The position numbers and the translations under genes were made by a program. The notes beneath the pieces were generated by a model that was not told the DNA's origin, did not search any database, and saw only the letters and a list, made by a program, of their open reading frames with translations. This document shows, one piece after another, positions 2,686 to 17,222 of a stretch of 23,852 nucleotides of DNA. The DNA is from a virus. Taxonomy: Duplodnaviria > Heunggongvirae > Uroviricota > Caudoviricetes. Location: the IMG/VR virus record IMGVR_UViG_2585427740_000001; one strand, 5' to 3'. Position 1 is the first letter of the stretch, and every line of letters starts with the position of its first letter.

Positions 2686-2724
2686 CGCAAAGTCTCCGCA
2701 ATTACACGCAAGAAAAAACCGCCA

Positions 2725-2892
2725 TCAGGCGGCTTGGTGTTCTTTCAGTTCTTCAATTCGAATATTGGTTATGTCTGCATGTGCTATCTGCGCCCATATC
2801 ATCCAGTGGTCATAGCAGTCATTGATGTTCTCTGCTTCGATAACTCTGTTGAATGGTTCTCCATTCCATTCACCTGTGACTCGGAAGTGCAT
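2725..2892 (-). CDS. Small hypothetical protein (55 aa) directly upstream of xis
   Basis: ATG at 2892 preceded by GGAG 8 nt upstream. Below the 60-aa ORF-track cutoff; found by hand translation (MHFRVTGEWNGEPFNRVIEAENINDCYDHWMIWAQIAHADITNIRIEELKEHQAA). Confidence 0.45.
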   Translation of the reverse strand: MHFRVTGEWNGEPFNRVIEAENINDCYDHWMIWAQIAHADITNIRIEELKEHQAA

Positions 2893-2974
2893 TTATCATC
2901 TCCATAAAACAAAACTCGCCGTAGCGAGTTCAGATATAATTTCCACCAAAGGCAGTAGTTGCTGATGCTAAGAA

Positions 2975-3403
2975 TTATTCAATATCTATTCCTGTAATAT
3001 CTTTTATCTTTTTCCTTGCAAAGCCTTTTGCTAGTGATTTTGAAACACTTATTAGTGTACTAATTCCCTCATCCTTAAAGTTTGTTTTTATAGTTTGCCA
3101 GACCTCCTTTTGACGCAAGTCAGCAATAAAATCATGCCCTCTTGCTGTCAACCTCAGTGGTACTTCGATCCAACTATATCCAACACCTTCCCCTAACTCG
3201 TTGGACATTATATGACCGAACCCAGGTTTTCCATCAACCCTGACTATTAATTCGTAGTCGCATAATAATCGCATATGGAAAATAAAATTTTGGTCATATC
3301 TATTAAAGCCATTATCCTCTAGTTCACTAAGCATCGTGTCAGGGCCATGAGTTTTTTCGAATGCGATAAGTAGATCTTTTAGATATTGCTGGTCTAATTT
3401 CAT
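2975..3403 (-). CDS. Hypothetical protein, 142 aa, AT-rich orphan gene in the xis-exo accessory region
   Basis: Clean ORF with GGAGG 7 nt upstream of ATG. Composition more AT-rich than the flanking int/xis. No family recognised. Confidence 0.7.
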   Translation of the reverse strand: MKLDQQYLKDLLIAFEKTHGPDTMLSELEDNGFNRYDQNFIFHMRLLCDYELIVRVDGKPGFGHIMSNELGEGVGYSWIEVPLRLTARGHDFIADLRQKEVWQTIKTNFKDEGISTLISVSKSLAKGFARKKIKDITGIDIE

Positions 3404-3431
3404 TGCCGCCTCCGTGACATGTCACAGAGAT

Positions 3432-3770
3432 TTATATCATTAATTTTGTTTCGTGCCAGCCTTTGGTCACCCAGCATTGTGAGTCACCATTACACGGGCA
3501 TGAATTAACAGGAACTCTCTCGCCGCACTTACCGCAACGTTTTCTGCTGATCGATTTTATACGCCAGCGCACACGTGCATCATCCTGGCGGCTCAGTAAC
3601 GCGATGTACTCACCAAACTCGTAAGGCGCATGCCTGAAGCGGCGCGTGGCTCAGTTACGATCCAGCATTTCAATTTCCTGAGCATCAAGTACAAGCTCCA
3701 GCTTACGCATACCGGATGATGCTTGCTTGGCTCTCTGATCGACTTTGCGCTCTGCTGATGATTTAGCCAT
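3432..3770 (-). pseudogene. Small ORF interrupted by an in-frame TGA: 39 codons (3651-3770), opal stop, then 71 further in-frame codons (Cys-rich, CxxC...CxC) ending at TAA 3432-3434
   Basis: Hand translation of the minus strand: MAKSSAERKVDQRAKQASSGMRKLELVLDAQEIEMLDRN*ATRRFRHAPYEFGEYIALLSRQDDARVRWRIKSISRKRCGKCGERVPVNSCPCNGDSQCWVTKGWHETKLMI. AGGA-type RBS before the ATG. Confidence 0.35.
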
Positions 3771-3965
3771 TCTGCTTTTCCTGCATTAGGAGAAAGACAA
3801 TCATGGCGGCGCGGATACTTCCGGTATCTTTTTACTCGATATTACCCTTCAATGGCACATACAAGAAGAGAGCCATCAACAGGAGTGAGTGAGGAATCGA
3901 CAACCAGCAACGCTTAATTATCTATAGTGTCGTATTTGCTTCATAAAATATGGCGAATAACACAA

Positions 3966-4063: not shown

Positions 4064-4679
4064 TTATCTAAAAGTCTTTCCACTTTTAACGTCTAGGTAT
4101 ATTCTGTTCGACAACGTCATTCCTCCGCAATATGTGAAATAGATGTTTTTCCCCTTATTGCTTGATGCCATCCACCCTCCGATTTCCTTAAAGTCGCTTT
4201 CCGTGCAGACCCCTTCGTTTATTAACTTCCTAGCTGCCGAAGAAAACTCTTTTTTGTATATACGGTAGTCATCAGATCCTTTGATTAAAGTATCATCTCC
4301 GCTCGCATTTTCAGCAGGATCTGATGGCCTTTCACTGCTAAGATCACTAAGTTTAACCCATTCTGAAAACTTGCCATTGACGATTCCGTTTTTTCTTGTG
4401 CAGGATTTATTACCTTCTTTAATATATTCGCTTTCCCCTCCCACACATGAGGCTGAATATGGCTCAGTTATACGAACCCATTCACCTTTTTTTTTCTAGA
4501 AAATCTACGCCTTCCCTGAAAAATAGTTTCCCAGCCACTCCACATTTACTTGAAGGGCAGGTATGTCTTTCCGTTCGATCAACAACAACCCAAAGTCTTG
4601 ATTCATTTTTTGCCATTGCCGATGGTATTTGAGATGAGACAATTAACGTAAGCCCTAAAATTAGTATTGATTTTTTCAT
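4064..4679 (-). pseudogene. Secreted protein gene (about 205 aa if intact) split by a frameshift inside an A9 homopolymer tract
   Basis: Upstream ORF (4482-4679) starts with a signal peptide (MKKSILILGLTLIVSSQIPSAMA) and has a good RBS. It ends at TGA just after nine consecutive A (plus-strand T9 at 4487-4495). The downstream ORF (4064-4444) continues open in the other frame through the tract; removing one A fuses them. Confidence 0.65.
4487..4495. repeat. Homopolymer tract (T9 on plus strand, A9 in the coding strand) at the frameshift point of the 4064-4679 gene
   Basis: Counted directly in the sequence. Confidence 0.9.
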
Positions 4680-4977
4680 TGTAATTTCCTTTTACTTTTT
4701 ACAAAGCGTTTAATCATGGCTGATTATCTTTAAGCGTAGTAACAGCCTTGTGCGAAACATGTTACCAAATCGCCATTTCAGTGTATCCGCAGTTAGGCTG
4801 CCACTTCAAGGATTCCTAATTACATGGTACGTAAGCGTAAAATCCCGTTGGTTGTCGGGTAATAACTCTGATCAAATCTCCCTTGTCTTTTGCTCTTACG
4901 TATGCAGCTCTTGTGTATTCAACCCAGGCCTCCAGTTCAGCAATACGCTTACTTCCATCCGAGATAACACCTTCTAC

Positions 4978-5229
4978 TCACGCTGCTCGTTGAGTTTTGA
5001 TTTTTGCTGTCTCCAGCTCAACACGCAGTTTCCTCACCGTTAGCGCAATATCCTCGTTCTCCTGGTCGCGGCGTTTGATGTACTGCTGGTTTCTTTCCCG
5101 TTCATCCAGCAGTGTCAGCACAATCGATGGTGTTACCAGCTCATGGAAAAGGTCCGCGTCAAATCCCCAGTTGTCATGCATTGCCTGCTCTGCCGCTTCA
5201 CGCAGTGCCTGAGAGTGAATTACGCTCAC
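4978..5229 (-). CDS. Hypothetical coiled-coil protein (83 aa to the first stop); the frame continues for 53 more codons after an in-frame TGA (to TAG at 4816-4818)
   Basis: GTG start overlaps the stop of the upstream TraR-like gene (GTGA overlap). Downstream region 4816-4977 is open in the same frame but has no start codon of its own. Confidence 0.5.
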   Translation of the reverse strand: MSVIHSQALREAAEQAMHDNWGFDADLFHELVTPSIVLTLLDERERNQQYIKRRDQENEDIALTVRKLRVELETAKIKTQRAA

Positions 5230-6180: not shown

Positions 6181-6861
6181 TCATCGCCATTGCTCCCCAA
6201 ATACAAAACCAATTTCAGCCAGTGCCTCGTCCATTTTTTCGATGAACACCGGCACCATCTCGTCAAAACTCGCCATGTACTTTTCATCCCGCTCAACCAC
6301 GACATAATGCAGTCCTTCACGCTTCATACGCGGGTCATAGTTGGCAAAGTACCAGGCATCTTTTCGTGTCACCCACATGCTGTACTGCACCTGGGCCATG
6401 TAAGCCGACTTTATGGCCTCGAAACCACCGAGCCGGAACTTCATGAAATCCCGGGAGGTAAACGGGCATTTCAGCTCAAGGCCATTGCCGTCACTGCATA
6501 AACCATCGGGAGAGCAGGCGGTGCGCATACTTTCGTCGCGATAGATGATCGGGGATTCAGTAACATTCACGCCGGAAGTGAATTCAAACAGGGTTCTGGC
6601 GTCGTTCTCGTACTGTTTTCCCCATGCCAGCGCCTTAGCATTAACTTCCGGAGCCACACCGGTGCAAACCTCAGCCAGCAGGGTGTGGAAGTAGGACATT
6701 TTCATGTCAGGCCACTTCTTTCCTGAGCGGGGCTTGGCTATCACGTTGTGAACTTCTGAAGCGGTGATGACGCCGAGCCGTAATTTGTGCCATGCATCAT
6801 CCCCCTGTTCGACAGCTCTCACGTCGATCCCGGTACGCTGCAGGATAATGTCCGGTGTCAT
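6181..6861 (-). CDS. exo: Lambda exonuclease (Red-alpha)
   Basis: 226-aa translation ([30 protein letters not shown]...) matches lambda Exo as recalled. Confidence 0.97.
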
Positions 6862-7306
6862 GCTGCCACCTTCTGCTCAGTGGCTTTCTGTTTCAGGAAT
6901 CCAAGAGCTTTCACTGCTTCGGCCTGTGTCAGTTCTGACGATGCGCGAATGTCGCGGCGAAATATCTGGGAACAGAGCGGCAATAAGTCGTCATCCCATG
7001 TTTTGTCCAGGGCAATCAGCAGAGTGTTAATCTCCTGCATGGTTTCATCGTTAACCGGAGTAATGTCGCGTTCCGGCTGACGTTCTGCGGTGTATGCGGT
7101 ATTTTCGACAATGCGCTCGGCTTCATCCTTGTCATAGATACCAGCAAATCCGAAGGCCAGACGGGCACACTGAATCATGGCTTTATGCCGTAACATCCGT
7201 TTGGGATGCGACTGCCACGGCCCCGTAATTTCTCTGCCTTCGCGGGTTTTGAATGGTTCGCGGCGGCATTCATCCATCCATTCGGTAACGCAGATCGGAT
7301 GATTAC
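6858..7306 (-). pseudogene. bet: bet (Red-beta), 5'-truncated: only the C-terminal ~145 codons remain
   Basis: Translation from ...NHPICVTEWMDECRREPFKTREGREITGPWQSHPKRMLRH... to the C-terminus matches lambda Bet as recalled. The N-terminal ~115 codons are absent and the frame runs into ren-derived sequence on the opposite strand. Confidence 0.88.
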
Positions 7307-7426
7307 CGGTTCGCTACCAGGGAAGAACGGGAAGGAAAGGTGAGCACGAATCTGATTTTCAAGGAGTGTCGCCAGAGTGCCGCGATGAAGCGGGTGTTGG
7401 CATTTTATCGCGGCAATTTTCAATAG
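7304..7426 (+). pseudogene. ren: ren 3' fragment (last ~40 codons: YRFATREEREGKVSTNLIFKECRQSAAMKRVLAFYRGNFQ*)
   Basis: Plus-strand frame matches the recalled C-terminus of lambda Ren (...YYRFATREEREGKMSTNLVFKECRQSAAMKRVLAVYGVKR). It begins abruptly at the bet breakpoint. Confidence 0.7.
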
Positions 7427-16059: not shown

Positions 16060-16279
16060 CGGGTCCTTTCCGGCGATCCGACAGGTTACGGGGCGGCGAC
16101 CTCGCGGGTTTTCGCTATTTATGAAAATTTTCCGGTTTAAGGCGTTTCCGTTCTTCTTCGTCATAACTTAATGTTTTTATTTAAAATACCCTCTGAAAAG
16201 AAAGGAAGCGACAGGTGCTGAAAGCGAGCTTTTTGGCCTCTGTCGTTTCCTTTCTCTGTTTTTGTCCGTGGAATGAACA
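16060..16279. other. cos: cos site: cosN with 12-nt cohesive end GGGCGGCGACCT at 16091-16102, followed by cosB (terminase small-subunit binding region) up to the nu1 start
   Basis: Sequence ...CGACAGGTTACG GGGCGGCGACCT CGCGGGTTTTCGCTATTTATGAAAATTTTCCGGTTTAAGGCG... matches the recalled lambda genome ends joined at cos. Confidence 0.88.
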
Positions 16280-16795
16280 ATGGAAGTCAACAAAAAGCAG
16301 CTGGCTGACATTTTCGGTGCGAGTATCCGTACCATTCAGAACTGGCAGGAACAGGGAATGCCCGTTCTGCGAGGCGGTGGCAAGGGTAATGAGGTGCTTT
16401 ATGACTCTGCCGCCGTCATAAAATGGTATGCCGAAAGGGATGCTGAAATTGAGAACGAAAAGCTGCGCCGGGAGGTTGAAGAACTGCGGCAGGCCAGCGA
16501 GGCAGATCTCCAGCCAGGGACTATTGAGTACGAACGCCATCGACTTACGCGTGCGCAGGCCGACGCACAGGAACTGAAGAATGCCAGAGACTCCGCTGAA
16601 GTGGTGGAAACCGCATTCTGTACTTTCGTGTTGTCGCGGATCGCAGGTGAAATTGCCAGTATTCTCGACGGGATCCCCCTGTCGGTGCAGCGGCGTTTTC
16701 CGGAACTGGAAAACCGACATGTTGATTTCCTGAAACGGGATATCATCAAAGCCATGAACAAAGCAGCCGCGCTGGATGAACTGATACCGTTATGA
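16280..16795 (+). CDS. nu1: Terminase small subunit Nu1, C-terminally altered (171 aa; the last ~10 residues of lambda Nu1 are replaced by a single L and a stop)
   Basis: Translation MEVNKKQLADIFGASIRTIQNWQEQGMPVLRGGGKGNEVLYDSAAVIKWYAERD... matches lambda Nu1 through ...AALDELIP, then diverges at about 16789. Confidence 0.9.
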   Translation: MEVNKKQLADIFGASIRTIQNWQEQGMPVLRGGGKGNEVLYDSAAVIKWYAERDAEIENEKLRREVEELRQASEADLQPGTIEYERHRLTRAQADAQELKNARDSAEVVETAFCTFVLSRIAGEIASILDGIPLSVQRRFPELENRHVDFLKRDIIKAMNKAAALDELIPL

Positions 16796-16817
16796 GTTTA
16801 CGGATACGCTGGGGCTG

Positions 16818-17222
16818 GTGACGTCATTCAGCTATGCAGGAGACAAGAATCGCCAGCTGACCCATTACAGCGATACCCGCTGGCATGAAGATTCCGTTCG
16901 TAACCGCTGGTTCAGCGTAATGGCGGGGCCGTCTGTGCGCGTGAATGAATGGTTCAGCGCGTATGCGATGGCGGGTGTGGCTTACAGCCGTGTGTCGACT
17001 TTCTCCGGGGATTATCTCCGCGTAACTGACAACAAGGGGAAAACGCACGACGTGCTGACCGGAAGTGATGACGGTCGCCACAGCAACACGTCTCTGGCGT
17101 GGGGAGCTGGCGTGCAGTTTAACCCGACCGAATCCGTGGCCATTGATATTGCTTATGAAGGCTCCGGCAGTGGCGACTGGCGCACTGACGGTTTCATCGT
17201 GGGTGTCGGTTATAAGTTCTGA
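16818..17222 (+). pseudogene. lom: lom (Ail/Lom/PagC-family outer-membrane protein), 3' fragment lacking signal peptide and proper start
   Basis: C-terminal ...SVMAGP...AYAMAGVA...IAYEGSGSGDWRTDGFIVGVGYKF matches the lambda Lom C-terminus as recalled. Upstream sequence is nu1; no ATG or signal peptide. Confidence 0.85.

Follow-up and report, generated by a model that had tools for sequence, protein, structure and literature searches.

An in-frame opal codon at a conserved cysteine position of a lambdoid prophage gene: very probably a nonsense mutation in a regulator-like gene of a decaying element

Introduction

Does a single in-frame TGA within a small cysteine-rich reading frame of a prophage mark a recoded codon, or a gene that has been lost? 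The frame in question lies at 3432-3770 of a 23,852-nt stretch of tailed-phage DNA (IMG/VR record IMGVR_UViG_2585427740_000001), which is referred to here as the window. The original prediction, which was made from the letters of the sequence, offered two explanations, a nonsense mutation or stop-codon readthrough. The first is borne out by the Cys codon that orthologues have at this position, and the second finds no support. We consider it highly probable that 3432-3770 is a nonsense-mutated pseudogene of a phage regulator-like gene in a decaying prophage. The pseudogene status is in fact already on public record, as RefSeq/PGAP labels the locus a hypothetical protein and pseudogene with an "internal stop" in E. 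coli PEC1009, two assemblies of ATCC 8739 and further strains.

In the scenario that we favor, a single T->A change in one lambdoid prophage lineage would have changed the conserved Cys40 codon from TGT to TGA. Protein synthesis would then end after 39 residues, within helix A of the protein, leaving helix B and the Cys module unmade, and the lesion would have subsequently drifted and recombined among related prophages with neither half kept by selection. What carries this scenario is the homology of the frame, its ancestral codon, the single origin and the distribution of the lesion, an excess of non-synonymous change and a missing SECIS-like signal. In itself the case is of little consequence, being another accessory gene inactivated in a lambdoid prophage that is defective; it also illustrates that neither selenocysteine nor readthrough need lie behind an in-frame TGA where a conserved Cys is expected.

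The interrupted reading frame

Minus-strand translation of 3420-3800 gives the TGA-split, Cys-rich ORF at the coordinates and in the form in which it had first been described (Table 1). An ATG at 3770-3768 opens a run of 39 sense codons (MAKSSAERKVDQRAKQASSGMRKLELVLDAQEIEMLDRN), the opal codon occupies 3653-3651, and 72 further sense codons lead to a closing TAA at 3434-3432. The start, the 39 codons, the TGA and the ribosome-binding site of the original prediction all stand, and only its count of 71 downstream codons gives way to 72. The Cys cluster (CGKC...CPC...C; residues 79, 82, 91, 93, and 99) is located 3' of the TGA. In random sequence a 72-codon stretch would stay open with a chance of about (61/64)^72 = 3%, and by itself such a stretch is not compelling proof of a gene frame. 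It is homology that marks the whole 112-codon frame as a real gene frame, of which codons 1-39 are the only part translatable without readthrough.

Table 1. Features of the interrupted frame and of a second pseudogene nearby (positions in the window)
Feature	Position	Strand	Basis
Whole 112-codon frame, very probable pseudogene of a PHROG 536 / epsilon15 gp49-like small regulator	3432..3770	-	Translation, homology, RefSeq
AGGA, Shine-Dalgarno-like	3779..3782	-	8 nt 5' of the ATG at 3770; read from sequence
Codons 1-39: basic N-terminal helix, predicted strand region, most of helix A	3654..3770	-	Translation and model helices
Codon 40, TGA (TGT/TGC = Cys in intact homologues)	3651..3653	-	Codon comparison
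Synonymous CGT->CGC, codon 43, gene position 129	3642..3642	-	Private to TGA alleles; variable-site table
Untranslated remainder, codons 41-112: C-terminal end of helix A, then helix B (52-74), the Cys-rich module and the final helix	3435..3650	-	Translation and model
Cys cluster C79-x2-C82 ... C91-x-C93 ... C99, presumed metal-binding module	3474..3536	-	Conservation in alignments
ea22-like pseudogene	4929..5229	-	Alignment to lambda ea22; RefSeq "frameshifted; incomplete"

Intact homologues and the ancestral codon

Once codon 40 is read as Cys again, the protein matches the profile of PHROG 536, a "transcriptional regulator" family, over nearly its full length (hmmscan E=6.7e-49, residues 1-111 against profile positions 2-114/115). 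Among 5.8 billion proteins searched there were 299 homologues at E<=1e-3, nearly all of them 112 aa long, from Escherichia, Salmonella, Citrobacter, Klebsiella, Enterobacter, and others, and a profile search of 1.84 billion cluster representatives matched 181 clusters. Hundreds of enterobacterial phages and prophages carry the gene as one 112-aa ORF, and in full-length distant relatives with 23-50% identity both halves always lie within one protein. Two independent genes in the orthologues, the arrangement that had been named in advance as speaking against one interrupted frame, are thus not what was found.

Uninterrupted 339-nt ORFs are present in E. coli EC20-4B-2 (WP_001129736), where the prophage position is the same, in phage Chlobot with 97.4% DNA identity, and in phages TL-2011b (gp20), phiV10 (p55), epsilon15 (gp49), and many others. 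The PHROG 536 members epsilon15 gp49 (NP_848257), phiV10 p55 (YP_512310), TL-2011b gp20 and WP_001129736 have the same 112-codon frame as the window copy and share 85-94% amino-acid identity with it outside codon 40; the invariant residues, including C79, C82, and C91, are common to both. The nearest intact allele also shares its prophage position, between an ea22 remnant or hypothetical gene on one side and the DUF2513 gene, xis, and int on the other, whereas in epsilon15-like and TL-2011b-like phages the gene sits at the end of the early operon beside terminase/cos and the window copy is near int.

Codon 40 is TGT or TGC (Cys) in every intact homologue compared, and therefore the TGA of the window is a TGT->TGA nonsense mutation; this settles whether the opal codon is a sense codon elsewhere, a comparison that the original prediction had proposed. 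Cys40 is invariant across the alignment of 104 cluster representatives, and distant relatives have A, M, R, V, I, T, or E in its place. C79, C82, and C91 are invariant and C99 is at least 90% conserved, distant relatives included, and all four are present in the downstream frame of the window. Members of PHROG 536 are single uninterrupted ORFs and the window copy has a TGA at codon 40; on this comparison it appears to be a pseudogene of the family and no functional member.

One public annotation needs a comment here. In Chlobot (PP925838; our locus L002) the submitted annotation of the region 2421-2899 has a 105-aa "UmuD-like protein" that overlaps in a different frame, plus a 46-aa "transcriptional regulator", and the full 112-codon ORF at 2561-2899 is uninterrupted. 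The split is a gene-calling artefact, and some phage annotations, that of Chlobot for example, wrongly divide the intact ORF.

Predicted structure and function of the intact protein

Close homologues alone gave an AF2 model of low quality (pLDDT 64), and a Foldseek search of the PDB with it was meaningless. A more diverse alignment raised the pLDDT to 86.5 for an intact homologue of 94% identity (P0001), with helices at residues 5-19, 30-42, and 52-74, a Cys-rich segment at 79-99 and a last helix at 100-108. The intact protein is accordingly predicted to consist of a basic N-terminal helix, a ribbon-helix-helix-like core (about 20-74) and a Cys-rich C-terminal module, and this three-part architecture would fit a small transcriptional regulator in the early regions of several temperate phage types. 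The matched structures are ribbon-helix-helix proteins of the CopG/Arc/MetJ kind, e.g., the TacA antitoxin (7ak7_C), AmrZ (3qoq), ParD/PrpA (7ycv), and Arc (1arq), to which the PHROG 536 protein adds the basic N-terminal helix and the Cys-rich module. We infer from the model that the intact protein may bind DNA as a small dimer of the ribbon-helix-helix type, to which a zinc module is appended, and the label "transcriptional regulator" of PHROG 536 would thereby gain some support at the level of the fold.

Searches of Pfam, NCBIfam, and PDB sequences with the restored protein, its halves and the alignment profiles gave no significant family, the only matches being YbfE at E=0.04 and noise such as Fer4_20; the protein of the window likewise has no match in Pfam. 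Among curated ribbon-helix-helix sequence models none scored above threshold, and RHH_5, RHH_1, and RepB-RCR_reg appeared below threshold in 1-2 of 58 relatives. A literature search on epsilon15 gp49 returned nothing on this protein.

In the model, codon 40 falls inside helix A, the first helix of the ribbon-helix-helix-like core. Since the stop lies inside this helix, with helix B and the Cys module both missing, the 39-aa product could not form the predicted fold, and the peptide is presumably inactive.

A defective lambdoid prophage

The window is nearly identical to E. coli PEC1009 (6 mismatches and 1 gap over 23.85 kb). Its first 7.3 kb also matches E. coli ATCC 8739, with divergence after 7310, and the IS1 of ATCC 8739 is absent from the window. 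It starts in ybhC at the lambda attachment site and continues into a lambdoid prophage in which the int, xis, and exo side of the early-left region is retained. The N-terminus of bet/RecT is missing and bet is fused to a ren fragment at 7303 (window 6857-7425), a junction which implies loss of the gam-kil-cIII-N-immunity-O-P region together with the native leftward early promoter of the exo-to-int block. Similarly, nohD (terminase small subunit-like) abuts a lom fragment (window 16279-17221), which implies deletion of the head cluster and most tail genes, the tail-fibre genes being still there. Several further prophage genes are annotated as pseudogenes, and from its gene content the prophage is plainly defective. 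A promoter and terminator scan gave nothing relevant to the gene above shuffle expectation.

This setting resembles the cryptic lambdoid prophages of E. coli, with decay of the DLP12/Rac type, in having a point nonsense mutation in an accessory early-region gene, in being without immunity, replication, head, and tail genes, and in having other genes frameshifted or truncated. It is slightly unusual by comparison that one lesion is found in three haplogroups and has moved on a 1.2-kb module to a second prophage type.

Origin and distribution of the opal allele

One T->A substitution in the third base of Cys codon 40 (window base 3651) accounts for the lesion, and a third-position T->A in a Cys codon is among the commonest routes to an opal codon. 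When IMG/VR was scanned with a 29-nt pattern around codon 40, TGA was found in 19 contigs and TGY in 118 stretches. The 141 gene copies extracted comprise 109 intact copies, which carry TGT, 24 with TGA at codon 40, one of them also frameshifted (L030), and 8 that are otherwise disrupted. These last include an independent Cys79 TGC->TGA, frameshifts and a replaced C-terminus, and as judged from such sequences the gene family would evidently be dispensable and often inactivated in prophages. By IMG/VR locus, the Cys79 change is in L048 and the frameshifts are in L061 and L067/L089; L078/L088/L097/L149 are among the loci with other inactivations, the kinds of which include a C-terminus replaced after Gly104.

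The TGA alleles form three haplogroups, with differences at no more than 9 of the 339 positions. Every TGA allele has a synonymous CGT->CGC change 9 nt 3' of the TGA that no intact allele shares, and because this private change at gene position 129 is perfectly linked to the lesion, the alleles point to one mutation as their source, with divergence and recombination thereafter. Independent origins, suggested by an allele on three backgrounds, were considered and rejected on account of the same linkage. One TGT allele (L095) has the C-terminal variants of one TGA haplogroup, direct evidence of recombination between TGA and TGT alleles.

A 30-nt probe covering both private sites, the TGA and gene position 129, was positive in 63 of 5426 complete E. 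coli genomes, about 1041 of which have the gene. The same probe found none in 50,697 phage records, only about a dozen of which hold close homologues, and alone this zero is weak evidence. TGA copies are mostly in the att-lambda prophage. One TGA haplogroup is in a different prophage, where only a 1.2-kb module is held in common (window 2709-3913); this module has 97-98% identity to the prophage type beside torI or an HTH gene, and contains a 55-aa ORF, the DUF2513 gene, the pseudogene and an umuD-like remnant. The TGA thus being common to three haplogroups, two prophage contexts and 63 genomes, the mutation is older than any individual strain. The original prediction had called it a recent nonsense mutation; the mutation is upheld, and "recent" is apt only in the sense that there has been little further decay.

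The history of the allele can also be held against the pseudogene reading, since the allele has persisted, has moved between two prophage contexts and is present in an apparently near-complete 43-kb lambdoid element. Such persistence and spread imply that the gene was lost at no obvious cost.

Some side observations concern the neighborhood of the gene. The module 2709-3913 is an example of lambdoid mosaicism. Just upstream of the TGA gene, on the minus strand, lies a 22-codon UmuD/S24 peptidase-like fragment (3845-3910; "DNA repair protein", pseudogene), and longer remnants of this UmuD/S24-like gene occur in related prophages. The 43,337-bp circular "plasmid" of E. coli SZQ1 (NZ_CP174001.1; L151) carries the TGA allele within a gene set that runs from terminase through tail fibre, int/xis, exo/bet/gam, O/P-like genes, Q, and lysis; it has no obvious repressor region, and a host diguanylate cyclase fragment adjoins int. 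The record has the appearance of a lambdoid phage genome, nearly complete, that was assembled in circular form.

Selection on the opal allele

Segregating sites were counted without a tree, with 54 intact haplotypes of the main subfamily as comparison (Table 2). The overall ratio of non-synonymous to synonymous sites is 13:3 in TGA alleles vs. 33:43 in intact ones (Fisher p=0.012), which is to be read as a comparison of segregating sites in small numbers and with recombination evident. As a crude test, this is the pattern that relaxed constraint on the whole gene would predict, and it does not appear to be the one predicted for a readthrough protein or for a functional N-terminal peptide. Conserved residues have been altered in the TGA clade as well (G80R, G80D, C99Y).

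Table 2. Segregating sites in TGA alleles and intact haplotypes (counts without a tree; small numbers)
Alleles and region	Non-synonymous	Synonymous
TGA alleles, codons 2-39	5	0
TGA alleles, codons 41-112	8	3
54 intact haplotypes, codons 2-39	14	18
54 intact haplotypes, codons 41-112	19	25

The frame 3' of the TGA is open in 23 of the 24 sampled TGA copies. Divergence among TGA alleles is at most 2.7%, or about nine substitutions, each with a chance of roughly 4-5% of creating a new stop. At such divergence an open downstream frame is expected under neutrality, and thus it does not discriminate between the hypotheses.

Alternative readings of the opal codon

Readthrough, selenocysteine, a two-gene split, and sequencing error share among them only a small part of the probability. 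In programmed or functional readthrough, a near-cognate tRNA would decode the UGA and yield a minor 112-aa product next to the 39-aa one, as in the coat and A1 proteins of Q-beta. UGA is the leakiest stop in E. coli, that is, the one most often read through (PMC5289835), the frame behind it is open, and the allele has reached 63 genomes and two prophage contexts. We nevertheless regard this reading as very improbable. The stop is not conserved in the family, being restricted to one clade nested among TGT alleles and found in 0 of 50,697 phage records. The leaky contexts cited for E. coli are UGA-C and UGA-A (PMC5289835), whereas the +4 base here is G. No structure stands out either, as z is -0.23 for the folding of the 76 nt around the UGA and the 48 nt from the UGA have an MFE of -13.4 kcal/mol vs. 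a shuffle mean of -13.35. Downstream polymorphism is mostly non-synonymous (8:3 vs. 19:25 in intact alleles; small numbers), tRNA-Trp would place Trp where close homologues have an invariant Cys, and the native promoter region is deleted in the window prophage. The Q-beta A1 readthrough protein and the selenocysteine UGA of fdhF do share with this locus an in-frame UGA with an open frame behind it, at a position that in the case of fdhF is Cys in homologues. The resemblance is superficial; unlike them, this locus has no conserved stop and no SECIS-like hairpin, its context is UGA-G, and constraint downstream of the UGA is relaxed.

Full-length protein is probably made in trace amounts, most of it with Trp at position 40, and some residual function of the TGA allele is formally conceivable. 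One might go further and suppose that the opal allele is maintained rather than merely tolerated, either as UGA leakage gives a very low dose of the full-length protein or as the 39-aa peptide acts alone. We give this idea very little credence; if true, it could explain the finding of one lesion in three haplogroups, two prophage types and about 1% of E. coli genomes.

Equally doubtful in our estimate is the division of the frame into two working genes, one for the 39-aa N-terminal peptide and another for a C-terminal Cys-rich peptide that would start at an internal GTG (codon 67, window 3572). An AGGA does lie 8 nt 5' of this GTG, which opens a 46-aa ORF at 3432-3572, but the two elements together correspond to codons Q62-V67 of the intact gene and are shared by all intact alleles, and nothing new has been formed. 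Gene callers do give 39-aa and 46-aa products (P0214, P0158), PHROG 34005 is a 40-aa family that matches residues 1-40, and the 46-aa piece is annotated separately in Chlobot; in that phage, however, the 112-codon ORF is intact and the split is of the gene caller's making. Such a division would also lose residues 41-66, and with them helix B of the predicted ribbon-helix-helix core. The non-synonymous excess is seen in both halves of the TGA alleles (5:0 in the N-terminal and 8:3 in the C-terminal part), and no full-length family member is naturally organized as two genes.

Selenocysteine at the TGA, replacing the conserved Cys40, is more remote still and hardly deserves any weight. The opal codon stands exactly at the Cys position of homologues, which is the usual relationship between Sec and Cys, but this position is equally expected for a Cys-to-opal nonsense mutation, Cys codons being one step from TGA, and another Cys->TGA has arisen in the same family at codon 79. 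Insertion of selenocysteine in E. coli requires a hairpin that binds SelB and lies a set number of nucleotides from the UGA. A hairpin of the SelB type is not evident after this UGA; shuffled versions of the 48 nt that follow it are just as stable, the three TGA haplogroups give different predicted structures, and the stability predicted for the TGT allele is no lower. Rfam gave neither a SECIS element nor any other RNA family for 3300-3900, even at E<=10, and a permissive Rfam scan gave just two chance snoRNA-like matches on the opposite strand. In addition, distant relatives replace Cys40, which shows that the family does not use it as a catalytic or redox residue. A sequencing or assembly error in a gene really intact in the source strain, to which a likely homopolymer-length discrepancy elsewhere in the window (T9 vs. 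T8 at 4486-4494) might lend some color, is next to impossible, as the TGA is a substitution and no homopolymer indel and is found identically in 63 independent complete genomes, including three separate ATCC 8739 assemblies.

Other interrupted frames in the window

The homopolymer just mentioned, T9 in the window and T8 in PEC1009, lies in a gene at 4064-4679 on the minus strand. It splits the gene of a 204-aa hypothetical protein (WP_000748284.1), intact in PEC1009 and ATCC 8739, into ORFs of 126 and 65 aa. The extra T is either a real frameshift or an error in sequencing the homopolymer.

A second ORF at 4816-5229, also on the minus strand, had been said to show the same pattern as 3432-3770, making chance a less likely explanation. 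It has indeed one in-frame TGA, at 4978-4980, followed by 53 open codons. The likeness lends no support to a shared recoding, as indels have produced it. Compared with lambda ea22, there is a +1 insertion in an A-run near 5005 and, about 30 nt later, a -4 deletion near 4975; the roughly 8 codons between them, with the TGA among them, are out of frame. The net change of -3 restores the frame, so that the result looks like a single in-frame stop, and the ea22 homology ends near 4931. The ea22 lesion is independent of the nonsense mutation at codon 40 and mechanistically different from it, and both TGA-containing ORFs simply reflect decay in a defective prophage.
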